DNA of 64,000 nt, taken from contig RFNO01000106.1 of NCBI GenBank assembly GCA_009927165.1, positions 3,409 through 67,408 on the forward strand, written 5' to 3'. Shown here one piece after another: positions 2,488 to 60,286 of this stretch. The first letter of the stretch is position 1. Each line of letters starts with the position of its first letter. This DNA comes from Pseudomonadota bacterium (GTDB lineage Bacteria; Bdellovibrionota; FAC87; UBA2466). Made by a program: the position numbers and the translations under genes. The notes beneath the pieces were generated by a model, which searched no databases, was not told where the DNA came from, and was given only the letters and a program-made list of their open reading frames with translations.

Positions 2488-4167
2488 TTACTTAACTTTT
2501 GAGCGTACGGGGGGAGCAGAAGGAAGAAATTTCAGATGAGGATATTTTCCAGATGCCCAATTCATGCTCCAATCTGATTTAAAGAGAATGACTGGTATCC
2601 CATCTCGATCCTCAGCGACCAGACAGTCGGCATAAGCACGAAATTCCGAAATTTCTTTCGAGATATCTTTTCCATCTTCTGTGGGACAGACCCAGCGAGC
2701 TCGTGAAAAACCCATCCGGTCTATTTTCATATCAACGGAGTATTCAGTTTTAATTCGGTGTTGCAATACTTCAAATTGAAGTGCTCCAACTACCCCCAAA
2801 ATAGGATGCGCATCCCCTTGAGTGGACGATTTAAATATTTGAACCACTCCCTCTTCGGAGAGTTGTTCCAATCCTTTTTTGAGCTGTTTTCGTTTAAGCG
2901 GATCTGCGAGCGACACAGTTGCAAAGTTTTCAGGGGAAAATCGGGGGACTCCTTCATATTCAAAAGTGGAGCGCTCACAAAGGGTATCGCCGATTCGAAA
3001 ATCTCCAGAAGTATCCAAAAATCCAACAATATCTCCAGGCCAAGCTTCCTCAATCAAATGTCTTTCTTGGGCAAAAAAATGAAAAGCTTTGTTGAGTTTA
3101 AACGGTTTCTCAAGTCGAGCATGGGTGGCATCCATGCCTCGCTGAAACTTGCCGGAGCAAACCCTAAAAAATGCAACCCGATCTCGGTGTTGAGGATCGA
3201 TATTGGCTTGAATCTTAAAAAAAACGCCAGAGAAATCAGTGGTAAGTGGGTTAATGAGACCTTGATTAGAAATGCGGCCCGTAGGTGGGGGGGCCATCGA
3301 CAAAAAATTATCCAAAAAGTGTTGAACCCCAAAGTTGTTCATGGCGCTTCCGAAGAAGACAGGAGTGAGTTCTCCTCTCAAAACCCTTTCAGAATCATAG
3401 GGATCGCCCGCGATTTCCAACAATTCGAGTTGCGATCGCACTTCCTCTTGGAGTTCTTTTAAATCTTGTTCCTGGTCCGGAGTGGGCTCCAGCGCTTTAA
3501 CAAGATCTGCTTTCGCGATATTGCCAACTTTAAGGGTCGGAATTTGCTTCGAGGCATGAGCTTTGTCTTCAGCCTGGAATAAAAGTACTTCTTCCCGAAT
3601 GCGGTCATAAACGCCTTTAAATCGGTCGCCCATTCCAATGGGCCAACTAATGGGTGAGGAACGGATGCCTAACACTTTTTCTAACTCATCAATGAGTTCA
3701 AGAGGATCACGTGCGGGACGATCCATCTTGTTGATAAATGTAAATATCGGTAGGCCTCTCATGCGGCAGACTTCAAATAGTTTGAGTGTTTGGGGCTCAA
3801 CCCCTTTTGCGGCATCTATCAACATGACTGCAGCATCCGCTGCTACCAGGGTGCGATAAGTGTCTTCGGAGAAATCTTTATGACCCGGAGTATCGAGAAG
3901 ATTAATTTGATAGTCTGCATACTCAAAGCGAAGCACAGTTGTGCTGATGGAAATACCTCTCTGTTTCTCAATTTCCATCCAATCCGATGTGGTTTTTCTT
4001 TGATTTGATTTTGCTTTCACAGCACCGGCTAAATGAATAGCTCCCCCATAGAGAAGGAGTTTCTCGGTCAATGTTGTTTTTCCTGCGTCCGGATGGGAAA
4101 TAATTGCAAACGTCCGTCGCCGTTTTACTTCTTTTTCAATGGTTTTTTCAGTGAGACTAGAACTCAT
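2488..4167 (-). CDS. prfC: peptide chain release factor 3 (GTPase)
   Basis: 559 aa with FAIISHPDAGKTTLTEKLL G1 motif, DTPGH, NKMD; length and N-terminus are typical of RF3. Confidence 0.9.
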   Translation of the reverse strand: MSSSLTEKTIEKEVKRRRTFAIISHPDAGKTTLTEKLLLYGGAIHLAGAVKAKSNQRKTTSDWMEIEKQRGISISTTVLRFEYADYQINLLDTPGHKDFSEDTYRTLVAADAAVMLIDAAKGVEPQTLKLFEVCRMRGLPIFTFINKMDRPARDPLELIDELEKVLGIRSSPISWPIGMGDRFKGVYDRIREEVLLFQAEDKAHASKQIPTLKVGNIAKADLVKALEPTPDQEQDLKELQEEVRSQLELLEIAGDPYDSERVLRGELTPVFFGSAMNNFGVQHFLDNFLSMAPPPTGRISNQGLINPLTTDFSGVFFKIQANIDPQHRDRVAFFRVCSGKFQRGMDATHARLEKPFKLNKAFHFFAQERHLIEEAWPGDIVGFLDTSGDFRIGDTLCERSTFEYEGVPRFSPENFATVSLADPLKRKQLKKGLEQLSEEGVVQIFKSSTQGDAHPILGVVGALQFEVLQHRIKTEYSVDMKIDRMGFSRARWVCPTEDGKDISKEISEFRAYADCLVAEDRDGIPVILFKSDWSMNWASGKYPHLKFLPSAPPVRSKVK

Positions 4168-4170
4168 GGG

Positions 4171-4908
4171 TTAACGAATATAAGTCGATAAAAAATTTCT
4201 TACCGAAGGCTGTGAGAAATCAACAAATTGAGACATCTGTCGTGAGCCCTCATTGTAAGCACCGTGACTGACTCCAATGACCATAAAGAGTTCTCCCACT
4301 TTTTTAAGGAGTGGTCCACCAGAATCACCAAAACAAGCACCAGCTCGATTTTCCGGTCCAGCAATCTGCTTAATTTGGATACCGGGCGTGGCTACTTCCA
4401 AAAACTCAGAGCGCTCGGCAATGATGTTGCTCCCCAAGCGTTTTATTCCCCCGCTGGCGGGAATCTCTGAAGAACTACAACCAAAACCAACAAGAGTGAC
4501 CGCATCACCAACAGATGCTCCACTAGCTACTGGAATAATTTCTTGTGGTGAGGCCACAGGAGAAGGCAAGTAGAGAAGAGCGACATCAAAGGGATCGCCT
4601 TCGGCGCCTGAACCCAACGTTACTTTTTGCGTGGTTTGAATGGGACCTCTTGTTGTGTGAACCGTAAACGGACCTGCGTCCAAGAGACAGTGCGCAGCGG
4701 TTAGAATCGTAGAAGGACTTACAAAGGTTCCTGTGCATAATTTCTGTCCCGTAATCATGACAATGCCAGGAAAACTTTGAGTGGCCATCGCTGTTCTCGA
4801 AGAGGGACGAGGCAGCTCAGCTTCAGAGAGACTTTTTCCACAACCGGATAAAATAAAAAGACTCGTGATGAGACAAAGAGTAACCCTAAGAATTTGTTTC
4901 ATTCCCAC
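4171..4908 (-). CDS. secreted S1 (trypsin-like) serine protease, lipoprotein signal
   Basis: LSGCG lipobox, TAAHC His motif, GDSGGP Ser motif; paralog of the ORF at 61675-62460. Confidence 0.85.
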   Translation of the reverse strand: MGMKQILRVTLCLITSLFILSGCGKSLSEAELPRPSSRTAMATQSFPGIVMITGQKLCTGTFVSPSTILTAAHCLLDAGPFTVHTTRGPIQTTQKVTLGSGAEGDPFDVALLYLPSPVASPQEIIPVASGASVGDAVTLVGFGCSSSEIPASGGIKRLGSNIIAERSEFLEVATPGIQIKQIAGPENRAGACFGDSGGPLLKKVGELFMVIGVSHGAYNEGSRQMSQFVDFSQPSVRNFLSTYIR

Positions 4909-5094
4909 CCCTGGATACCCTGAACGTTTTGGAAAGCTGAGACCTTGTACAGGAAATCAAAATTATCAACAAGACGCAAAGTTCGTCACCGCCAGTAAGT
5001 TATTGAAAAAGCTAGTTAATTTTCTCTCTCATAATTCTGTCACAATCCTTTGCTAATCTGCAATTAAGTGGAACGTAACAGGAGGTAGGACATG

Positions 5095-5375
5095 TCATTT
5101 ACTCCCGAGTAGGGAACTACAAAAACAATTTGGGCTGACTTCGAGAGCCGGTGGGCGGCTACTCCCATTGGGAGGTGCCCCAGGGGCATAGGTAAGTCCC
5201 TTGCGGCTCGGAAGGCAGAGGCTTTAGGGGCCCCCAGCGGGGCTTGGTGAAAGCGTGAGTTGCCGCCGGTTGTAGGGCGCTGAGCTTGTTTGGTTCCCGC
5301 AGCCGAGCTGACAATTTTTAAGGCCGGGGTTCGCGAAGACTATCGTGGACCTCGGTTTTTCTTTTTAACAAGCCT
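5095..5375 (+). ncRNA. unclassified GC-rich structured noncoding region (candidate structured RNA or 5' leader)
   Basis: About 280 nt at roughly 60% GC in a ~45% GC context, with no ORF of 60 aa or more on either strand. Several local hairpins are visible (CTCCC-ATT-GGGAG, GCCCC-CAGC-GGGGC) plus a possible long-range helix (CCGGTGGGCGGC with GCCGCCGG). It ends in a + strand intrinsic terminator. Confidence 0.35.
5324..5366 (+). terminator. rho-independent terminator-like hairpin plus T-tract
   Basis: CCGGGG...CCTCGG stem (one G-U pair) around a loop containing the TTCGCGAA palindrome, followed by TTTTTCTTTTT. Confidence 0.5.
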
Positions 5376-5437
5376 TACCGACTTGCAGACCATGGATGAG
5401 TGTGTTTTTCTGAAACTTGCTAGGGAGGAATCTTTAT

Positions 5438-6016
5438 ATGGCTCGCACTCCATCAATCATGTTGGATTTAGGGACCGAGGCCCCAAATTTTTCTTTGCCG
5501 GACACTGAGGGTTCGCTTTTTCGTTTGGAAAGTGTCAAAGGTAAGCAACCTTTCTTGGTGCTTTTTATATGCAACCATTGCCCGTACGTGAAACATATTC
5601 GTAAGGAATTGGCTGCTCTTGGAAACGAATATCAAATGAAAGGAATTGCGATCATTGCGATTAATTCCAATGATTTTTTGAGTTACCCTGAGGACAGCCC
5701 TGAAAACATGGTTCAGGAAAAAAAAGAAATCGGTTATTTGTTCCCCTATCTCATAGACGAGAGTCAGGAAGTTGCCAAAAATTATCGAGCAGCTTGTACT
5801 CCCGATTTTTTTCTTTTCGATCGTCAAGGAAAACTCTTTTACCGCGGTCAATTCGATGACAGCCGTCCAGGCAACGGGATTTCGGTGACTGGAAGAGATA
5901 TTCGAAGTGCCATGGAACTGGTGTTGAAAAATGGAAAGTCACCCCTGGAACAAAAACCTAGTTTGGGGTGCAACATCAAGTGGAAAACAGGAAATGCCCC
6001 TTCCTATTTTGTGTGA
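5438..6016 (+). CDS. thioredoxin-fold protein (TlpA/AhpC-TSA-like, CxxC)
   Basis: FICNHCPYV redox motif and thioredoxin-like layout. ATG at 5438 has a GGGAGG RBS 9 nt upstream; the track start at 5417 is TTG with no RBS. Confidence 0.65.
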   Translation: MARTPSIMLDLGTEAPNFSLPDTEGSLFRLESVKGKQPFLVLFICNHCPYVKHIRKELAALGNEYQMKGIAIIAINSNDFLSYPEDSPENMVQEKKEIGYLFPYLIDESQEVAKNYRAACTPDFFLFDRQGKLFYRGQFDDSRPGNGISVTGRDIRSAMELVLKNGKSPLEQKPSLGCNIKWKTGNAPSYFV

Positions 6017-6029
6017 AAGGAATTAACGC

Positions 6030-6437
6030 TTGGAAGATTGGAAGAAAAAACCAGATTCATTTTGGAAAGAGAAGCTTTCCTCGGAGCAATATGCCGTTTG
6101 CCGAAATGCTGCGACCGAAAGGCCTTATACGGGAAAGTTTTACCACCACCAAGAGGAGGGCACTTACCACTGCGCTGGATGTGAATTGGCTTTGTTTCGC
6201 TCAGAAGAAAAGTACGAGTCGGGAAGTGGATGGCCAAGTTATTGGGCCCCCTACAATGAGTCCTGTTTGGAGTACAAAAACGATCTCTCACATTCTATGG
6301 TGCGAATAGAAATCGTGTGCAGTAGATGTTCCTCGCATTTGGGGCACGTCTTTGATGACGGCCCAGCTCCGACTCATAAAAGATTCTGCGTAAATTCCGC
6401 AGCTTTATCGTTTGTTCCCAAAGCTACCAATAAATGA
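6030..6437 (+). CDS. msrB: peptide-methionine (R)-S-oxide reductase MsrB
   Basis: 135 aa with CAGC and CSRC zinc-knuckle pairs and the GHVFDDGP catalytic region (SelR family). Confidence 0.9.
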   Translation: MEDWKKKPDSFWKEKLSSEQYAVCRNAATERPYTGKFYHHQEEGTYHCAGCELALFRSEEKYESGSGWPSYWAPYNESCLEYKNDLSHSMVRIEIVCSRCSSHLGHVFDDGPAPTHKRFCVNSAALSFVPKATNK

Positions 6438-8016
6438 CTTCGTAAGTTCTGCAGGTTGCAGTCCTTCCGGCTGAATCTCGAAGTCTTGCAGTAACTTGCC
6501 AATTTCCGGGATAGGTAAAGTAAACCCATCGATTGATGGGCGTAGAAGCTCCCGTTGAATAGGCGGACAGAGAATTGTCGTCAGCGAAACCGCTAGCATA
6601 GTCTGCCGTTAAACTCTCAAGCCAATAGGTTCCTTGCGCTCCCGATGGGGTGACAGTCGCCAAAATCCATCGATCAGTATAAGTCGGATTGGGGGTCAAA
6701 CTGAGTGTACATGAGAACTGGCTCGAGGAAGAAGCGATGTTGATTGTCGTTTCTAAGTAGGCACCGGAGTTACAGAGAGCTCCCGAGCTTGCTGACCGAG
6801 CTTTTGCCGTGACTGTCTTAGTACCCGATGAATAGAAACTAATGTATGGATACTGGGACAGTGTTCCTACTAAGTAGCCATCTAAAATATTGAGTTCGGT
6901 AACAATCAAGGCTTCGCCTGAAGTTGCTAAAATACTAAACGGTACATTGTCTCCCACTTTATAAGGGGTCACGCTGGCTGCATAACTGATTGAGCAGTTT
7001 AAAGTACTGGGATTAGCAGTAAAAGTGACCGGAAGTGAACTGGTGGCCGATTGAGTTCCATTGCTAGCGGTCACGGTAACAGTGCCGGTTCGAGTGACCG
7101 ACGCATCTATTGCTGTAACCGTTGCTGTTGAACCTGAAGAGACGAGGTTTAAGCCTGCGCCCGAGATGGAATAAACGTAACTTGGAGTAAAAGTGAAGTT
7201 ATTCGCTGTCGATGTAATGGTAATCGTGCTAGTTGCTGGAACTGTTGAAGAAGGACTTGCAGTTAAAGTAACGGATGGTCCGCTCTGAACATTAACTGTT
7301 TTTGCACAAGTGGCTGAGTTGCCTGAACTGTCAGAGATATAAAAAACTGCAGTGTTTAGGCCTGCAGTGGGATATTGGGCTGAAGCCGTAGCTTGAGTAG
7401 TTGAAATTTGGTTGAGAGAAGAGGTCACTGTACCGTTCCCGCCTTGTACAAATCCTGTGAAATAGTAAGGAGAAGACCCTCCTGAAGCGGTAGCGGTGTA
7501 AGTCACGCTTGCTCCAATTGCCGGATTTTCGTTCGAAGCTGCAACAGAGCAGCTGAGGGGATTGGTGGTAGCGACGGGACTTACGGTGACTGCCAATTGG
7601 CATGTCGTCGAACCTCCCGAAGCATCGCTCACTGTAAAGTTCGTTGTTGTAATTTGGCTACTAGATCCCGAAATCTGAAGCGTTTGAGGAACTGTGTAAG
7701 TAGTTAAAAAAGTGCCAGAGACTCCAGAAAGCGAGTAAGGTCCCACTCCGCCGACTACTTGAATAGTTACCGGGAAGCTTTGTCCAGATACTACCGAATT
7801 TAAAGAAGTGGATGCCGCACAGGTCAGTGAAGTTGAAGTCACGGTACCAGGTCCAACCGTCAATCGGATGGGATCGGTTGTAATGTTACATCCGGCTACT
7901 GAAAACAGAGTGAGCGCAGCCAAAACAACTTTAAAGCTCTTGAAAAATCTCATGGAACACAACCTCCAAAAAAAAACGGTAGCACCCAATGGGAGCGTTC
8001 CTCCGAGGAGCTGCAA
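6424..8016 (-). CDS. Ser/Thr-rich lipoprotein with tandem Ig-like (He_PIG-type) repeats
   Basis: FSVAGC lipobox; repeated about 90-aa units carrying GG.GPY/SPYYF motifs, each with a Cys. Start may be the internal Met at 7953. Confidence 0.55.
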   Translation of the reverse strand: MQLLGGTLPLGATVFFWRLCSMRFFKSFKVVLAALTLFSVAGCNITTDPIRLTVGPGTVTSTSLTCAASTSLNSVVSGQSFPVTIQVVGGVGPYSLSGVSGTFLTTYTVPQTLQISGSSSQITTTNFTVSDASGGSTTCQLAVTVSPVATTNPLSCSVAASNENPAIGASVTYTATASGGSSPYYFTGFVQGGNGTVTSSLNQISTTQATASAQYPTAGLNTAVFYISDSSGNSATCAKTVNVQSGPSVTLTASPSSTVPATSTITITSTANNFTFTPSYVYSISGAGLNLVSSGSTATVTAIDASVTRTGTVTVTASNGTQSATSSLPVTFTANPSTLNCSISYAASVTPYKVGDNVPFSILATSGEALIVTELNILDGYLVGTLSQYPYISFYSSGTKTVTAKARSASSGALCNSGAYLETTINIASSSSQFSCTLSLTPNPTYTDRWILATVTPSGAQGTYWLESLTADYASGFADDNSLSAYSTGASTPINRWVYFTYPGNWQVTARLRDSAGRTATCRTYEVIYW

Positions 8017-20916: not shown

Positions 20917-21828
20917 ATGCGTGCGTTAGTCTCAGGCGGAGCAGGGTTTATTGGTTCCCGGTTGGCCCTTGAATTAGAAAAAAATGGGGCTGAAGTGCAT
21001 GTCATTGATAGTTTTTTATCTCTTAATTTCAATAACTTATCATTGTTTAAGGGGCCGGTAATCCAACACGATTTATTGGATGACTGGACCTCCTCAGGAA
21101 AATGGGACGTTATTTTTCATCAAGCTGCGATTACTGATCCCAGACATGAAAGCGACGAAGAGGTCTACGAAAAAAATGTTCGGGGTTTTGAAAAACTCCT
21201 TAAACTGGCTTTGCAGTCCCAAGCCAAGCTCATTTATGCGTCTACCGCAGGTCTTTATGGCAATGGTGCGGTTCCCATGAAAGAGGCACAAGAGAAAGAA
21301 GTACTCACGGCTTATGGACGGTCCAAACTCAAAATGGATGAAATCGCAGAATCTCATTTTAATCAGCTTCACTTAGTGGGTTTGCGTTACTTCAATGTCT
21401 TTGGTCCCCACGAAGCCCATAAAGGACGGCCGGCTTCAATGATTTACCATCTTTGGAAGCAAATGGTGTCGGGACAAAGACCACGGCTTTTCAAGTGGGG
21501 AGAACAGAGCCGAGATTTTATTTATGTAAAAGATGTTGTTCGAGCCAATCTGTGCGCTATTCATGCTCCATCCGGCATTTATAATGTGGGCACAGGCGTT
21601 GCTTCTACTTTTAATACTGTCGTTCGAATACTCAATGAAGTACTGGGAACTTCTCTTGAACCCGACTACTTTGATATGCCTTACGAAAGCAAGACCTACC
21701 AGCATTGCACGCTTGCGGATACATCCTATGCGGAGACAGGATTAAATTTCAAAACGGAATGGGATTTAAAATCAGCCATTTTCGATTACGTGAAATGGTT
21801 AGAAAAAACGGAAGGAAGTCACTTATGA
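20917..21828 (+). CDS. hldD: ADP-L-glycero-D-manno-heptose-6-epimerase-like NAD-dependent epimerase
   Basis: SGGAGFIGS Rossmann motif, YASTAGLYG...YGRSKLKMDE (YxxxK), FNVFGPHEAHKGRPASM. Start taken at the second Met. Confidence 0.75.
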   Translation: MRALVSGGAGFIGSRLALELEKNGAEVHVIDSFLSLNFNNLSLFKGPVIQHDLLDDWTSSGKWDVIFHQAAITDPRHESDEEVYEKNVRGFEKLLKLALQSQAKLIYASTAGLYGNGAVPMKEAQEKEVLTAYGRSKLKMDEIAESHFNQLHLVGLRYFNVFGPHEAHKGRPASMIYHLWKQMVSGQRPRLFKWGEQSRDFIYVKDVVRANLCAIHAPSGIYNVGTGVASTFNTVVRILNEVLGTSLEPDYFDMPYESKTYQHCTLADTSYAETGLNFKTEWDLKSAIFDYVKWLEKTEGSHL

Positions 21829-23903
21829 TTCAAACGCGAACCGGTTTCGTCCAAGGTGCTGTAGTTTTCTTAGTTCTCCTCTGTGGAGTAGTTATCGCAG
21901 ATGAGGGAATGTGGACTTACAATAATTTGCCCACAGAAATTTTAAAAGAGAAATACGGTTTTGAACCAACCCAGGAATGGACTGAACACCTCATGAAATC
22001 ATCGGTTCGTTTTAATTCAGGAGGCTCAGGTTCTTTTATCTCTCCCCGAGGCTTGGTCCTGACTAACCACCACGTGGGTGCTGATGCGTTAGCCAAAATA
22101 TCGACTGCCGAGCACGATTATTATCGCGAAGGATTTCTGGCCAGGACTGAATCAGAGGAAATCAAGGCTCCAGACCTAGAATTAAATCAATTGTTATCAA
22201 TTGAAGATGTAACAGACAAAGTGAATGGTGCAGTAAAACCGGGTATGTCTGTTGCTGAAGCTGCTGCTGCTCGTCGTGCGGCGATTGCAACTATCGAAAA
22301 AGAGTCGCTTGAGAAAACTGGATTGCGGAGCGATGTGGTCACTTTATACCAAGGTGGCAAATACCAACTGTATCGCTACAAAAAATATACAGACATCCGT
22401 CTCGTCTTTTCCCCAGAGTTTGATATCGCATTCTTTGGTGGAGATCCTGATAACTTTGAGTATCCCCGTTTTAATTTAGATATGTGTCTTTTTCGGGTTT
22501 ACGAAAATGGTCAGCCCGTCCAAACAGAGCATTTCTTGAAATGGTCTGCGAAAGGCACCAATGAGAACGATTTAGTTTTTGTATCTGGTCATCCAGGCAG
22601 TACTCGAAGGATGTATACGCTTGCTGCTTTGGCTTTTCTGCGCGACATCCGAGTTCCCTATCAATTGGAGTATCTCAATCGTCAGGAAATCATGCTTCAG
22701 CAATTTGGCGGTAAGGGAATCGAAGAAGCCCGTCGAGCCAAAGAAGATCTTTTTTCAGTTCAGAACAGCCGCAAAGTTTATTACGGAAGAGTCAGGGGGC
22801 TTCAGGACCCAGAAGTCTTCAGAAAAAAACAAAAAGACGAAAATAGCCTGATCGCCGAAGTGAAATCTCGTCCCGACCTCAAAGATTTGGGAGGTGCTTG
22901 GGCCACTATCGAGCTAGCCCAAAAATCAGCCAAAAAGTTATTGGTAAAGCGTTCTTTGCTAGAAGGTGCCCAAGCGTTTAATTCCCAATTATTTTCTATT
23001 GCCCGGACTTTAGTGAGACTAGCAGAAGAAAGTAGTAAGCCTAACGAAGAAAGGTTACCCGAGTATCGCGATTCAAATCGTGCTTCGTTGGAACAACAAC
23101 TTTATTCAGAAGCTCCTATTTATGAGGATCTCGAAGTTGCTAAATTAACAGAAGCACTTACTTTCTTTGTTTCGAAAATGGGAGAATCCAATTCCCTAGT
23201 TAAGCAAGTATTGGCGGGAAAATCTCCATCAGAACGAGCTATTGAACTGGTAGAAAAAACTTCCCTGAAAAGTGTTTCGGTAAGAAAGTTGATGGCTGAA
23301 GAAGGAGCGAAGTCTATTTCTGGAAGTTACGATTCAATGATCCAGGTAGCTAAGTTGGTAGATTCGGCTTCTCGTTCCATTCGTAAGAAATACGAGGAAC
23401 AAGTCGAAGAGCCTGAAAGACAAGCCTATGCACAAATTGCAAAAGCCTTGTTTGCGATCAAAGGCACAAAAATTTATCCTGACGCTACCTTCACCCTGAG
23501 ACTTTCCTTTGGTCAAGTGAAAGGTTACGAGGAGGGTAGCCAAAAGGTACCGGCGTTCACTACTTTAGGAGGTGCTTTTGAGCACGAGGAGCGACATGGA
23601 AAGAACCCGCCGTTCCAACTACCGGGAAGCTGGCACCAGAAAAAACTGAATCTCGATTTACAAACTCCGTTTAATTTCGTGTCCACTGCAGACATTATCG
23701 GAGGAAACTCGGGAAGCCCAACTGTTAATCAGGCCGGGGAACTCATAGGACTTATTTTCGATGGCAATATTCATTCTCTCGTATCTGATTACTTTTACGA
23801 GGACAAACTAAATAGAGCTGTTTCCGTGGACACGCGAGGAATGCTCGAGGTCCTCAGAAAAATATATCTTGCTCATGAATTAGTGGCCGAATTGGGCTCT
23901 TAA
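21825..23903 (+). CDS. S46-family dipeptidyl-peptidase (DPP7/DPP11-like) serine peptidase
   Basis: Signal peptide then the DEGMW N-terminal hallmark, NHHVGAD His region, and IIGGNSGSP Ser motif near the C-terminus. ATG overlaps the hldD stop. Confidence 0.75.
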   Translation: MIQTRTGFVQGAVVFLVLLCGVVIADEGMWTYNNLPTEILKEKYGFEPTQEWTEHLMKSSVRFNSGGSGSFISPRGLVLTNHHVGADALAKISTAEHDYYREGFLARTESEEIKAPDLELNQLLSIEDVTDKVNGAVKPGMSVAEAAAARRAAIATIEKESLEKTGLRSDVVTLYQGGKYQLYRYKKYTDIRLVFSPEFDIAFFGGDPDNFEYPRFNLDMCLFRVYENGQPVQTEHFLKWSAKGTNENDLVFVSGHPGSTRRMYTLAALAFLRDIRVPYQLEYLNRQEIMLQQFGGKGIEEARRAKEDLFSVQNSRKVYYGRVRGLQDPEVFRKKQKDENSLIAEVKSRPDLKDLGGAWATIELAQKSAKKLLVKRSLLEGAQAFNSQLFSIARTLVRLAEESSKPNEERLPEYRDSNRASLEQQLYSEAPIYEDLEVAKLTEALTFFVSKMGESNSLVKQVLAGKSPSERAIELVEKTSLKSVSVRKLMAEEGAKSISGSYDSMIQVAKLVDSASRSIRKKYEEQVEEPERQAYAQIAKALFAIKGTKIYPDATFTLRLSFGQVKGYEEGSQKVPAFTTLGGAFEHEERHGKNPPFQLPGSWHQKKLNLDLQTPFNFVSTADIIGGNSGSPTVNQAGELIGLIFDGNIHSLVSDYFYEDKLNRAVSVDTRGMLEVLRKIYLAHELVAELGS

Positions 23904-24365: not shown

Positions 24366-25751
24366 CTAATATTTAGAAATTTCCTGGCTTGCTTTAAAAA
24401 CATTCAACCGTCCACCAGTAACAGTGATGTCTTTTAAACCAGAAATCGGATCAACTGATTTGAGCAAAATTTCCTTAATTTGTTTTGCAGCTTGCGCAGG
24501 ATTTTGCTGAGTCATTTCCGTAAATCGTTTGCTTCCGACACTGTGTAAGAGAGCAACCGCACCTGTCACGTGGGGAGTCGCCATCGAAGTTCCTGTCAGC
24601 TTTCGGGTTTTGTTGTCCGGAACAGTAGATAAAATATCAGTTCCAGGAGCGCCTAAATGGACGTGCTTAGCGCCATACCCAGCTCCCTCCGCGTATTTGT
24701 CATCATTCGAATCGGTGTTAGTCACTGAGATGATGTATGGGCTTTCGCATGCAGAAGGGACATCCCCAACTGAATCAACATCCACGTCTGAGTTAGAAGT
24801 GGCTACCACCGAAACAATCCCAACGTTACCCATCTCGGTATAAAGGTCATTCCATACGGAGTAATCTGGACTGGAACAGTCAGCATTATCGACTCCAAAA
24901 CTGGAGTTAGTAGCAACAATATTTGCTCCTTTTTTTCCGTGAGATTCTAACCACAGTTTCTTCTGAGCCAGGACGTATCCATAAGCCCGCGCAACGACTG
25001 AAGTCTCACCCGATGATCCTGCAACAGGCATAATTTTGGTGTTCCAGTTGATGCCAGAAACTTGCAAGTTATTATTTCCTTCTGCGCCGATAATTCCGGC
25101 AACATGAGTGCCATGCATATATCCGCTGTCATGCTTGTCGGTGGGGAGAGTTCCCTTATCGTCGATAGCATTCCAACCATTTATGTCATCTATGTAACCG
25201 TTCTTATCATCATCAATACCGTTATCGGGAATTTCTCCTTTATTTACCCAAATATTTTTCTGTAAGTCTTTGTGGGAAATATCAGTACCGCCGTCTACTA
25301 CAGCGACGACAATTTCGTTGCCAGCTGTATCTTTTCCACCCGTACCCAGTTCCCAAGCTTTAGTGGCTTCAATATCACCGCGGGAGCTAATCCCGTTAAT
25401 GCTCCATTGAGATTTCAGTTCCGGGTCATTAGGTGATTGACGAAGTTTTACCGGGTGGTCGGGCTGGGCATATTTCACGATTCCCGATTGCCCTGCGAAA
25501 GTTTTTAAAAAGGTTTTGCTCGAAGTCGGTCGTTTAAAAGTAACCAAATAGAGGTTTAAAGAAGGAACCAAAGCTTCATAAGTTTCAATGTTCTCGTCCC
25601 GTAGAAGGGCGGCAACTTGGTCCGTTTTTAAGGCAGCATCAAAACGGATAATTAATTTTTGAGCATTTGTCTGCTTGGTTTGTGCCTGTAAGGTGGAATT
25701 GACCCACAACAAGCTAAAAAAAGTGCTAACCAGAATAAGGTGCTTTGCCAT
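24366..25751 (-). CDS. secreted subtilisin-like (S8) serine protease
   Basis: Signal peptide, VVAVVDGGTD (Asp), HGTHVAGIIG (His), GTSMATPHVTGAVALL (Ser). Confidence 0.85.
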   Translation of the reverse strand: MAKHLILVSTFFSLLWVNSTLQAQTKQTNAQKLIIRFDAALKTDQVAALLRDENIETYEALVPSLNLYLVTFKRPTSSKTFLKTFAGQSGIVKYAQPDHPVKLRQSPNDPELKSQWSINGISSRGDIEATKAWELGTGGKDTAGNEIVVAVVDGGTDISHKDLQKNIWVNKGEIPDNGIDDDKNGYIDDINGWNAIDDKGTLPTDKHDSGYMHGTHVAGIIGAEGNNNLQVSGINWNTKIMPVAGSSGETSVVARAYGYVLAQKKLWLESHGKKGANIVATNSSFGVDNADCSSPDYSVWNDLYTEMGNVGIVSVVATSNSDVDVDSVGDVPSACESPYIISVTNTDSNDDKYAEGAGYGAKHVHLGAPGTDILSTVPDNKTRKLTGTSMATPHVTGAVALLHSVGSKRFTEMTQQNPAQAAKQIKEILLKSVDPISGLKDITVTGGRLNVFKASQEISKY

Positions 25752-25914: not shown

Positions 25915-27288
25915 TTAAGAGGAGATTAAATCGTTCATTCCTAAATCTTGAAGCTTTCGGTAGAAAGTGGCTTTGCTTAAACCAAGAGCTTCGATCGTAG
26001 AGGTCTTTTTGCCATTATTTTTCTTTAACTCTTCAGCAATCACGCTTCGTTCAAACTCTCTCACTTTACTTTGAAAATCTTGGTTCGTTTGCTCCCTCTT
26101 ACCAAAAGAGGGAACCAAAGGATTGTTTTGACGAAGATCGTAGATCTCTACTTCCTCAAGATTCTCATTTTTTTGAAAAAGAAGCGCTCTTTTCAAAGTC
26201 GATTCGAGTTGTCGGATATTTCCAGGCCAATCATAAGCAATCAGTTGATTCATTAATTTTTCACTGACTTTCGGCATTCGGGAAGAACGCGCATGCTTTG
26301 AGATAAAATGTTCTGTGAGTAGGGGAATATCTGATTTTCTCTCGCGTAAAGGAGGTATCCACAATACCAAGTCACTTAGCCGATAGATAAGGTCTTCTCT
26401 AAATTTTCCTTGTTCCATAAGTTCAGCTAGAGGCTGATTAGTCGCTGCAATGGTTCGGAAGGATAGAGTTTGTGTTTTATTAGATCCCACTCGTTGAATT
26501 TGACGTTCCTGAAGAACCCTCAAAATTTTGCTTTGAAGCTCAAAAGGGAGGTCTCCAATTTCATCGAGGAAAATATCTCCGGAGTCTGCTAATTCAAACT
26601 TCCCGGGTCTGCTTACTTTAGCGTCTGTAAAAGCTCCTTTTTCAACACCGAATAATTCGGCTTCCATGAGATTAGCGGGAATGGCCGGCATGTTCGCCAC
26701 AATAAAAGGACGTTTGGGATTGCCTTCTTGTTGATGGAGAAAACGAGCCAATACTTCTTTTCCTGTTCCACTTTCTCCTAAAATGAGAACGTTCAAGTGT
26801 GAATGATTTTTGAGTGCTCGAGCTTTTTCAATGACTTCCAAAAACGGGTGGGCTGAGCCGACCAAAGAAACAGGGGAAGGATGAAGAAGAGTTTCAAGCT
26901 TCTCTAGGGACTGTTTCAAATTTCTTTTTTCTAAAACGCGCTCCAAAGCAAAAAGAACTGACTCTGGTTCGATTGGTTTAATGAGGTAATCGGCAGCTCC
27001 TAAACGCATGCAATCAATCGTTACTCTCATTTCGCGTTGTCCACTCAGGACAACAATTTCCATCAAGGGCAGGTCTTTTTTCCATTTTTTTATGAGTTCT
27101 TGTCCGTGGGTTTGACCCAAGTGCAGATCAAGAACAACCAAGTCGACCGTTCTATTGTTGAGAATAGTTGCCGCTTCAATGGCTGATGATGCAGCAACAA
27201 CATCGTACAAGGGCCTTAACAGATGAGTCAGAGATTGAAGCAAAAGAGGATCGTCATCGACAACTAGGACGCTTGGTGCTTGAGCCAT
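25915..27288 (-). CDS. sigma54-dependent response regulator (NtrC family: REC, AAA+, HTH)
   Basis: VLVVDDDPLL receiver domain, GESGTGKE Walker A, GAFTDA motif, ESTLKRALLF and a C-terminal HTH; no adjacent histidine kinase. Confidence 0.85.
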   Translation of the reverse strand: MAQAPSVLVVDDDPLLLQSLTHLLRPLYDVVAASSAIEAATILNNRTVDLVVLDLHLGQTHGQELIKKWKKDLPLMEIVVLSGQREMRVTIDCMRLGAADYLIKPIEPESVLFALERVLEKRNLKQSLEKLETLLHPSPVSLVGSAHPFLEVIEKARALKNHSHLNVLILGESGTGKEVLARFLHQQEGNPKRPFIVANMPAIPANLMEAELFGVEKGAFTDAKVSRPGKFELADSGDIFLDEIGDLPFELQSKILRVLQERQIQRVGSNKTQTLSFRTIAATNQPLAELMEQGKFREDLIYRLSDLVLWIPPLRERKSDIPLLTEHFISKHARSSRMPKVSEKLMNQLIAYDWPGNIRQLESTLKRALLFQKNENLEEVEIYDLRQNNPLVPSFGKREQTNQDFQSKVREFERSVIAEELKKNNGKKTSTIEALGLSKATFYRKLQDLGMNDLISS

Positions 27289-60082: not shown

Positions 60083-60137
60083 GACTTGAGGGAAGACTCT
60101 TGCCGGTCGTTGGACCGACCGCTAAATTGGCTGCTGT

Positions 60138-60209
60138 GTCCCTGTAGTTAAATGGATATAACGGAGGATTCCTAATCCTCAATTACAGGTTCGATTCCTG
60201 TCGGGGGCA
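60138..60209 (+). tRNA. tRNA-Arg (anticodon CCT)
   Basis: Hand-folded cloverleaf: acceptor GTCCCTG/CGGGGGC, D-stem GTTA/TAAC, anticodon stem GAGGA/TCCTC with loop TTCCTAA, T-stem ACAGG/CCTGT with loop TTCGATT. Discriminator A; CCA not encoded. Confidence 0.75.
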
Positions 60210-60286
60210 TTTCTTTCCCATGACTCACATGAAAAAACCCTTGTGAAGTTCAGGAACAGCCTTTTTAATTAAGCCCGAGGTGATCT

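Follow-up and report, generated by a model that had tools for sequence, protein, structure and literature searches.

A Conserved Folded RNA with a Six-Codon Reading Frame in an Uncultured Bdellovibrionota Clade

Introduction

What occupies a GC-rich stretch, devoid of sizable reading frames, between an S1 protease gene and a thioredoxin-like/msrB gene pair? The question is raised by a Bdellovibrionota contig (GenBank assembly GCA_009927165.1, contig RFNO01000106.1), of which 64,000 nucleotides (nt), positions 3,409 to 67,408 of the forward strand, were analyzed; this whole stretch is called the window here, and all positions refer to it unless a related locus is named. An initial annotation of the window, made by eye, had left two readings side by side: a riboswitch or attenuator leader of the thioredoxin-like/msrB pair (trx-msrB), or a stand-alone structured RNA gene of open class. 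We find that window 5042-5366, on the + strand, is a conserved folded RNA of ~325 nt that lies outside all known Rfam families, a statement based on its conservation, strand, secondary structure, reading-frame pattern and synteny and on the absence of an Rfam match. Among the candidate readings we favor, at roughly even odds (about 0.5), a free-standing small RNA whose mini-ORF (open reading frame, ORF) is loaded with ribosomes, rather than a leader of trx-msrB.

A Conserved RNA Outside the Known Families

The GC content is 0.61–0.65 across 5100-5349 and 0.37–0.47 on both flanks (150-nt windows), in agreement with the rise that had been noticed between 5095 and 5375. As had also been stated, no ORF of 60 amino acids (aa) or more lies inside 5095-5375; a mechanical 72-aa TTG ORF at 5290-5508 (+) overlaps the last 85 nt of this ORF-less stretch and clips its 3′ end. 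On the + strand, 5090-5370 folds at −121.3 kcal/mol (z = −3.3 against dinucleotide shuffles, with 0 of 200 equaling it), whereas the − strand of the same stretch does no better than its shuffles (z = −0.6), so the structure is strand-specific.

Searches against known families gave no class. A cmscan of the whole 64-kb window against Rfam (4227 families) at gathering thresholds returned only tRNA, with nothing in the GC-rich region, and the models of riboswitch classes, including c-di-GMP-I/II, cobalamin and TPP, did not match there. At E ≤ 10 the 601-nt slice 4900-5500 gave four junk matches with E of 5–8 (two snoRNAs, a lncRNA and the bacterial small RNA (sRNA) sX11), all far below their gathering scores; the SRP, RNase P, 6S and tmRNA models were not matched in the region even at this threshold. 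At gathering score, no family matched in 11 related loci, these housekeeping models included. ARAGORN reported no tmRNA, and only a tRNA-Arg; this tRNA-Arg (CCT), at 60137-60210 (+), is the sole Rfam/ARAGORN match in the window. Translated fragments of all six frames of the RNA region were without a Pfam match at E ≤ 1.

The RNA occurs in nine species, the window's own included. The exact thioredoxin-like protein is encoded on 17 metagenome contigs of the window's species, which are 99% identical in the intergenic region. Two more species (contigs L011/L012 and L014/L015) encode a thioredoxin of 71–72% identity in the same arrangement, with the RNA ~80% identical. For the lineage-specific S1 protease there are 18 orthologues of 51–66% identity, and in six further species (contigs L020-L031) the order protease-prfC-metH is conserved; on the other side of the protease there is a gap of 400–460 nt, followed by a gene with GAF and HD_5 (HD-GYP-type) domains and then by a sigma-54 response regulator. 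The RNA lies in this gap, divergent from the protease and in the same orientation as the GAF/HD_5 gene. We thus have nine species-level versions of the RNA, from one uncultured clade and always beside the protease-prfC-metH cluster. Downstream of the RNA, six species have GAF/HD_5 and the other three trx-msrB, which amounts to two independent contexts only.

Comparative Support for the Structure

The structure was tested on a plain MAFFT alignment (A5) of ten sequences, not fitted to structure, with controls in which pairing partners were slid by 1–3 columns. Standard pairs make up 91.7% of the cells, against 38–58% in the slid controls, and changes on both sides are seen in 13 of 34 pairs, against 1–6; on four of five measures the observed values were reached by 0 or 1 of 500 shuffles. 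Most of the covariation signal comes from the helix P2 of a three-way junction, which holds 7 of the 13 pairs among its 11: its strands are wholly different between species and still complementary (CUGACUUCGAG/CUCGGAAGGCAG in the window and CCGGCUCGGAG/CUCGCGGGCUGG in L030, for example). A four-sequence consensus fold (RNAalifold) contains 16 compensatory pairs. One of its pairings, UGGGC/GCUCG, was given up for the longer P2, which is valid in nine species. A covariance model of the RNA, R1, finds exactly one copy per locus, at 122–200 bits, and no copy elsewhere in the 64-kb window.

Both short hairpins that had been picked out by eye proved to be real. CTCCC-ATT-GGGAG (5162-5174) changes from C-G to A-U in relatives, and in GCCCC-CAGC-GGGGC (5230-5243) two sister species preserve the pairing by double changes from CG to UA. 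The enclosing helix suggested along with them, CCGGTGGGCGGC/GCCGCCGG, did not survive: it reaches 75% pairing without a compensatory change, where a slide of three columns gives 78%; a strain variant, GCCGCC to GCGGCC, breaks it; and two relatives lack the domain that contains its 3′ strand. The 5′ hairpin H0 and the hairpin HP1, for their part, are (almost) invariant, so covariation says little or nothing for or against either.

A search for extra covarying helices, pseudoknots and column runs found nothing convincing. Some further ideas were weighed by eye and set aside: that the Shine-Dalgarno sequence pairs with the anti-SD-like CCACCUC of the terminator's 3′ strand (no more than 5 base pairs (bp), and these are not conserved), that ACAGGAGG is a CsrA-type site (a single such site only), that the 5′ block resembles the 16S rRNA 3′ end (unsupported) and that GGCAT marks a sigma-54 promoter (its GG is not conserved).

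Anatomy of the RNA

The features are collected in table 1. As to the extent of the element, the GC-rich body described in the initial annotation stands but its start does not: the feature begins earlier, and its most conserved part, 5030-5115, which comprises the −10 box, the 5′ hairpin, the Shine-Dalgarno sequence and the mini-ORF, lies in an AT-rich stretch ahead of the GC rise. The −10 box takes the forms CATAAT, CATATT, CATTAT, CACATT or CATCTT at its fixed place in the nine species, and the sequence further upstream diverges. A simple sigma-70 promoter scan did not call the CATAAT site; a candidate −35 element, TTGAAA, is found at 5003-5008, 21 nt from the −10 box. Transcription would then start near 5042.

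H0 ends immediately 5′ of the Shine-Dalgarno sequence. In L024 its mismatch becomes a U-A pair and the helix is lengthened to 8 bp. The loop of HP1, GAGUA, is made up of the Glu codon and the UA of the UAG stop. Behind it, the linker ends in AAUUUAG in most species, and a block AAUUU(A/G)G is conserved ahead of P2. Within the junction, the P4 loop NNNGGUAA is kept in eight species (GGUAC in L024), and the segment J2/3 between P2 and P3 is conserved in the form ..UGG..AUA.

The 3′ domain is a less constant part. Compensatory changes occur in it among the three species of the window's clade; L020, L022 and L028 have a much shortened version, and L030 and L024 have none. The terminator hairpin and T tract noted by eye were found again on the + strand, with the ATG at 5438 following 71 nt on, behind GGGAGG. 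The terminator scanner also called a terminator in L011 and called none in L020, L030 and L024; a hairpin and U-rich tail were read by eye in the other species, and in L024 a U7 tract lies directly 3′ of P2. Strains of the window's species (window against L001, L004, L005 and L007) differ by G5186A (a structure-neutral change of a P4 pair from G-U to A-U), by C5264G at an unpaired base of the 3′ domain, by a 3-nt insertion ahead of the terminator and by the length of the T tract.

Table 1. Features of the RNA and its flanking genes, in window coordinates
Feature	Position	Strand	Evidence or remark
−10-like hexamer CATAAT	5030-5035	+	Putative own promoter; same position kept in 9/9 species
Whole RNA, ~325 nt	5042-5366	+	Predicted start to end of terminator T tract; strand-specific fold, nine-species conservation, covariance model
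5′ hairpin H0: UUGCUA 5050-5055 / UAACAG 5076-5081, C/A mismatch	5050-5081	+	98% of cells paired, ten sequences
Shine-Dalgarno AGGAGGU	5080-5086	+	Followed by 5-nt spacer 5087-5091
Six-codon mini-ORF ATG TCA TTT ACT CCC GAG TAG (M-S-F-T-P-E-stop)	5092-5112	+	9/9 species
Hairpin HP1: UCCC 5103-5106 / GGGA 5112-5115	5103-5115	+	Invariant; single-sequence and consensus folds
A-rich single-stranded linker ending in AAUUUGGG	5116-5134	+	A-rich in all species, length varies
Three-way junction, 84 nt	5135-5218	+	Covariation
P2, 11 bp, bulged G5210	5135-5145 / 5207-5218	+	Within three-way junction
P3, 5 bp	5162-5166 / 5170-5174	+	Within three-way junction
P4, 3 + 6 bp, CCC/U internal loop	5176-5178/5203-5205 and 5182-5187/5196-5201	+	Within three-way junction
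P4 loop, 8 nt, AUAGGUAA	5188-5195	+	Within three-way junction
Clade-specific 3′ domain	5219-5313	+	Helix 5221-5225/5250-5254 around hairpin 5228-5245; long hairpin 5265-5308
Short long-range helix GACA / UGUC	5310-5313 / 5093-5096	+	Part of 3′ domain
Intrinsic terminator, 17-bp stem (5320-5359), T tract to 5366, tail UUUUUCUUUUU	5320-5366	+	Terminator scan; stem covaries in relatives
S1 (trypsin-like) peptidase	4171-4902	−	Pfam Trypsin; first gene of divergent protease-prfC-metH; synteny in 9/9 species
Thioredoxin-fold AhpC/TSA protein	5438-6016	+	Pfam AhpC-TSA/Redoxin; behind the RNA only in the window's clade
MsrB	6030-6437	+	Pfam SelR; behind the RNA only in the window's clade

A Six-Codon Reading Frame at the 5′ End

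In all nine species the sequence GGAGGT is followed, after exactly 5 nt, by an ATG. The spacer is fixed in length and free in sequence (AGGAC, CGAAC, TTCAC, ATCAC, TGTGC, TTCTT and TGAAC were seen). The reading frame that follows conforms throughout to ATG TCN (TTY/TAY/GAT) ACT CCC GAR TAG, or M-S-[F/Y/D]-T-P-E: the Ser codons (TCA, TCT, TCC) and Glu codons (GAG, GAA) differ by synonymous changes only; codon 3 shows the synonymous pairs TTT/TTC and TAT/TAC, and also GAT; there are no insertions or deletions, the start is kept, and the stop is always UAG. The fixed length and free sequence of the spacer, the invariant start and stop and the exclusively synonymous changes of Ser and Glu point to selection on initiation and decoding, and we infer that the mini-ORF is translated; it would then be among the shortest conserved reading frames known. 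We also considered read-through of the UAG into a longer protein and rejected it. The frame beyond the stop is open for ~45 codons in the window and broken early in L014, L024, L026 and L028, so that no longer protein is encoded.

A Separate Gene or a Leader of the Downstream Genes

For the GAF/HD_5 genes a promoter of their own is predicted behind the RNA. TTAAG-N16-CCGATA, the FliA promoter consensus mapped in Bdellovibrio bacteriovorus (PMC3627812), is matched with ≤2 mismatches between the RNA terminator and the GAF/HD_5 start codon, a spacer of 40–80 nt, in five of the six species with this arrangement, and with 3 mismatches at the same place in the sixth; the background of such ≤2-mismatch matches in these loci is 1 per 2,700 nt. 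These matches to the FliA (sigma-28) attack-phase promoter lie, all on the − strand, at L020 4556-4600, L024 4596-4665, L026 2547-2595, L028 2567-2605 and L030 2578-2625. In L020 and L028 the match ends ~10 nt before the start codon, so the GAF/HD_5 mRNAs may be nearly leaderless.

In the window and in L011, the stretch from terminator to trx showed no promoter-like site, and in L011 the trx start codon follows only ~20 nt after the terminator. There, trx-msrB could hardly be transcribed except via read-through, and read-through of the terminator into trx-msrB is likely for the window's clade, to judge from these spacers. L014 retains, between terminator and trx, a remnant of the spacer that lies upstream of GAF/HD_5, which indicates a recent rearrangement. 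A further relative, L013 (thioredoxin 70% identical), carries trx-msrB and the same 509-aa neighbor, with trx overlapping another gene, and R1 finds no RNA in it: the pair is part of a longer operon there, without any leader. The gene order in this locus is carB-greA-recG, a BPL_N-domain gene and then trx-msrB (3261-4579), which overlaps the BPL_N-domain gene by 10 nt.

As expected of a riboswitch, P2, P3 and P4 form a covarying, aptamer-like structure with conserved junction nucleotides; a coherent set of downstream genes, which is equally expected, is not seen (GAF/HD_5 against trx-msrB, and L013 with no RNA). As in a leader-peptide attenuator, the pattern of a short ORF with an initiation site is present in nine of nine species; the end of this ORF does not abut alternative hairpins, HP1 being invariant and having no link to the terminator. 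The distance from UAG (5110-5112) to the terminator stem is 208 nt in the window and still exceeds 100 nt in the relatives with the shortest RNA. The segment from junction to terminator is not conserved and measures 0 to ~100 nt, and the scan of covarying columns disclosed no conserved alternative (anti-terminator) pairing.

Distribution and Neighboring Genes

RF3, the product of prfC, has its nearest named relatives in Bdellovibrionales and Bdellovibrionota metagenome-assembled genomes (MAGs), at 66% identity. Following RF3 also led to two sister lineages (72% and 69% identity; L032-L034), in which the protease-prfC synteny is not found and the RNA is absent within ±8 kb. A scan of genome contigs with the core pattern GGTGGGC..GGTAAGTCC..GTGAAAGC gave two matches only, in a Chloroflexota MAG and a Gracilibacteria MAG; both are rejected by R1 and so are chance matches. 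A scan of metagenome contigs with TGGAACGTAACAGGAGG-N4-7-ATG returned only the window's species and L015. Both patterns fit only the window's clade and miss its divergent relatives, so these scans say nothing on wider distribution.

All nine species keep a near-palindrome CCTTGTACAGG (core TGTACA; window 4943-4953) upstream of the protease, between its start codon and the promoter of the divergent RNA; an operator is one possible role, a hairpin in the 5′ untranslated region (UTR) of the protease another. On the far side of the pair, the convergent gene for a Ser/Thr/Ala-rich protein of 509–530 aa without a Pfam domain (window 6424-8016, −) overlaps the end of msrB. It accompanies trx-msrB in all relatives, L013 included, and thus appears to be a lineage-specific partner of the pair. 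A 77-aa ORF without a Pfam match is called over the 3′ half of the RNA and the spacer in L026 (2518-2751, −) and L027 (14-247, −), and is probably an artifact of gene calling brought about by the GC-rich RNA. The window also encodes several peptidases: an S1 trypsin-like enzyme with a lipoprotein-type signal (4171-4902), a papain-like C1 (10048-11538), an S46 (21705-23903) and a subtilase S8 (24366-25751). This richness in peptidases and the affinities of RF3 fit a predatory Bdellovibrionota-like organism. The sigma-54 activator of the window (25915-27288) is a 36%-identical paralogue, not an orthologue, of the one next to GAF/HD_5.

Discussion

We favor, with a probability of about one half, a stand-alone small RNA that carries a ribosome-loaded mini-ORF. 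Its own promoter, with the −10 box CATAAT at 5030-5035, would start transcription near 5042, and the terminator at 5320-5366 would end it, giving an RNA of ~325 nt. The 5′ end of this RNA would present a complete, exposed initiation site (hairpin, AGGAGGU, 5 nt, AUG), loading ribosomes onto the M-S-F-T-P-E frame, whose UAG would be held in the hairpin loop. The three-way junction, with its GGUAA loop and UGG...AUA segment, is most simply read as a binding platform on which a protein or small ligand would dock, or else as a stabilizing domain. We think that ribosome binding and translation of the mini-ORF belong to the working of the RNA; they could stabilize the transcript or set its fold, as in mccA (see below), and the hexapeptide may be a product in its own right. 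A rearrangement in the window's clade seems to have put trx-msrB behind the terminator, and the pair is now probably transcribed in part by read-through. The start site, the translation, the read-through and any action in trans are, in this account, predictions.

Several points weigh against this reading. The −35 element is poor or oddly spaced (19–21 nt from the −10 box). The variable positions of the mini-ORF are those left unpaired by the fold, so constraint on the RNA alone could yield a similar pattern; such constraint would nonetheless leave the invariant GA and UA loop bases and AUGUC unexplained. The downstream gene has the same orientation in nine of nine species, at spacers of ~20–80 nt, which fits a 5′ leader as well. 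The transcript boundaries, its discreteness and the translation are read from sequence, no target, ligand or protein partner was identified, and the sampling covers nine species of one synteny group, with scans limited to the clade.

The strongest competitor, although clearly behind, is that the RNA acts in cis, as an attenuator or new riboswitch in which the junction, alone or together with translation of the mini-ORF, sets the passage of polymerase into the downstream operon (ancestrally GAF/HD-GYP, here trx-msrB). The recurrent order of short ORF, structured domain and terminator ahead of a co-oriented gene in nine of nine species speaks for it, as do the short spacers (down to ~20 nt, in L011) and the lack of a promoter-like site ahead of trx, the aptamer-like conservation of junction and loop nucleotides, the U tract directly after P2 in L024, where the junction itself would be the terminator stem, and the weak U tails, with none called in L020, L030 and L024. 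It has to contend with downstream genes that are functionally unrelated between the two arrangements, with the FliA-type promoter that GAF/HD_5 appears to possess past the terminator, with the unconserved segment of 0 to ~100 nt between junction and terminator, with the unconvincing scan for covarying columns, in which no conserved anti-terminator pairing was seen, and with a distance of 130–210 nt between mini-ORF stop and terminator, more than classic ribosome-mediated attenuation would allow. The narrower claim of the initial annotation, a riboswitch or attenuator dedicated to the thioredoxin-like/MsrB pair, fares far worse and is very improbable: RNA and terminator do lie directly upstream of the pair and in its orientation in the window, L011 and L014, but the RNA precedes a GAF/HD_5 gene in six of nine species, the block of trx, msrB and the 509-aa gene in L013 overlaps the preceding gene and has no RNA, and the GAF/HD_5 spacer remnant in L014 points to a recent rearrangement. 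A bolder proposal, which we regard as speculative, is a new class of regulatory RNA in which the mini-ORF and a ligand- or protein-binding junction would jointly set the stability or termination of their own transcript and the read-through into what lies downstream. Such an RNA might sense the status of translation or termination, or a second messenger; a cyclic dinucleotide is offered as an example because the ancestral neighbor is GAF/HD-GYP.

Rather doubtful, and a little less probable again, is a tiny protein gene, with fMet-Ser-(Phe/Tyr/Asp)-Thr-Pro-Glu as the product (a signal, a ribosome-acting peptide or a precursor) and the remainder as a stabilizing 3′ UTR, in the manner of the 7-codon mccA. 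The strong, invariant Shine-Dalgarno sequence at its ideal fixed spacing, the synonymous-only changes of the Ser and Glu codons, the conserved start and stop and the precedent of mccA, where a mini-ORF is likewise followed by an intrinsic terminator (PMC4231749), would suit it. The conserved neighbors (protease, prfC, metH, GAF/HD_5 or trx-msrB) include no modifying or export enzyme, however; the third residue varies (F, Y or D); a plain stabilizer needs no covarying three-way junction with invariant loop and junction bases; and the invariant Thr and Pro codons are better explained by RNA pairing than by coding. We give hardly any credence to a strongly diverged SRP RNA, RNase P, 6S or tmRNA missed by the Rfam models. 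Size and GC enrichment are similar, and a GGAA/AGCA-like motif loosely recalls SRP domain IV, but the model searches described above found none, nor did ARAGORN for tmRNA, and a 5′ mini-ORF module with a three-way junction is unlike any of these RNAs. The SRP motif that the initial annotation had matched loosely turns out to be an accident: its 'GGAA' is no tetraloop but part of the 3′ strand of the covarying P2, and reads CGCAC, CGCAA, CGCAG or CGCGG in relatives. Equally far-fetched is a stretch without function, either a decayed protein gene or a GC-rich spacer that folds by chance. The mini-ORF frame does stay open past UAG in the window; its early breaks in four relatives, the absence of a Pfam match (E ≤ 1) for any fragment, and compensatory changes together with strand asymmetry, which a pseudogene would not be expected to show, all tell against it. 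Of the two readings left open at the outset, a stand-alone structured RNA of open class is supported by the lack of an Rfam or tmRNA match, by conservation and covariation across nine species and by a conserved −10 box and terminator; a control element dedicated to trx-msrB is not supported, given the synteny.

What had been seen by eye as a rise in GC is thus a well-supported, unclassified family of structured RNA in an uncultured, probably predatory clade, and a compact model in which to study the interplay of ribosome binding with the structure of a small RNA. It also corrects a tempting misannotation, in that there is no thioredoxin/MsrB riboswitch here, and exposes the probably spurious 77-aa ORF called in at least two assemblies. 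Its narrow known distribution, nine species of one clade, limits its present importance.

Comparison with Known Systems

The closest parallel in architecture is mccA of the Escherichia coli microcin C operon. A 7-codon ORF is followed there by a terminator, which gives an abundant short transcript and minor read-through for the downstream genes; ribosome binding promotes termination and stabilizes the short RNA, and the product MccA is a heptapeptide that is adenylated by MccB (Zukher et al. 2014; PMC4231749). The likeness concerns architecture only: a very short ORF (7 codons there, 6 here), a strong ribosome-binding site and a downstream intrinsic terminator. The peptide here has six residues and ends in Glu, and no conserved neighbor is a modifying enzyme recognizable by Pfam; an mccA-type precursor would be a heptapeptide beside a ThiF-like mccB, whereas the neighbors here are an S1 peptidase, RF3, MetH and GAF/HD_5 or AhpC-TSA/SelR. 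Between ORF and terminator, moreover, lie the 84-nt three-way junction and often a further domain, and no sequence similarity was found.

In a related phylum, B. bacteriovorus produces merRNA and other attack-phase sRNAs, which are discrete, structured, terminator-bounded RNAs of 100–650 nt and not classical leaders; merRNA is a riboswitch-type fold, the c-di-GMP-I aptamer, occurring as a free-standing RNA (Karunker et al. 2013; PMC3627812). The RNA described here resembles them as a structured RNA with a terminator, its discreteness being predicted. It differs in matching no c-di-GMP or other Rfam model and in a promoter that is not of the FliA type.

Dual-function sRNAs offer another comparison. 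The products of SgrS/SgrT, RNAIII/hld and Pos19 are tens of residues long and act as proteins. What our RNA would share with this group, which is reviewed in PMC12310071 and PMC12612679, is a conserved structure and a translated short ORF within one small RNA transcribed on its own. The peptides of the group are characterized as small proteins, usually <50 aa (PMC12310071). The six-residue product here would be far shorter.

The leaders of trp, his and pheA, and the mgtA leader with mgtL, likewise place a short ORF before a structured region and an intrinsic terminator, ahead of co-oriented genes. In contrast to these, there is no run of regulatory codons here, the stop lies 130–210 nt from the terminator, no conserved alternative of terminator and anti-terminator was found, and the downstream genes vary. 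The architecture, a conserved hexapeptide frame with its stop in a hairpin loop and a covarying three-way junction behind it, differs from known attenuators, riboswitch leaders and dual-function sRNAs, and the RNA stays within the broad kind of bacterial structured small RNAs or leaders.

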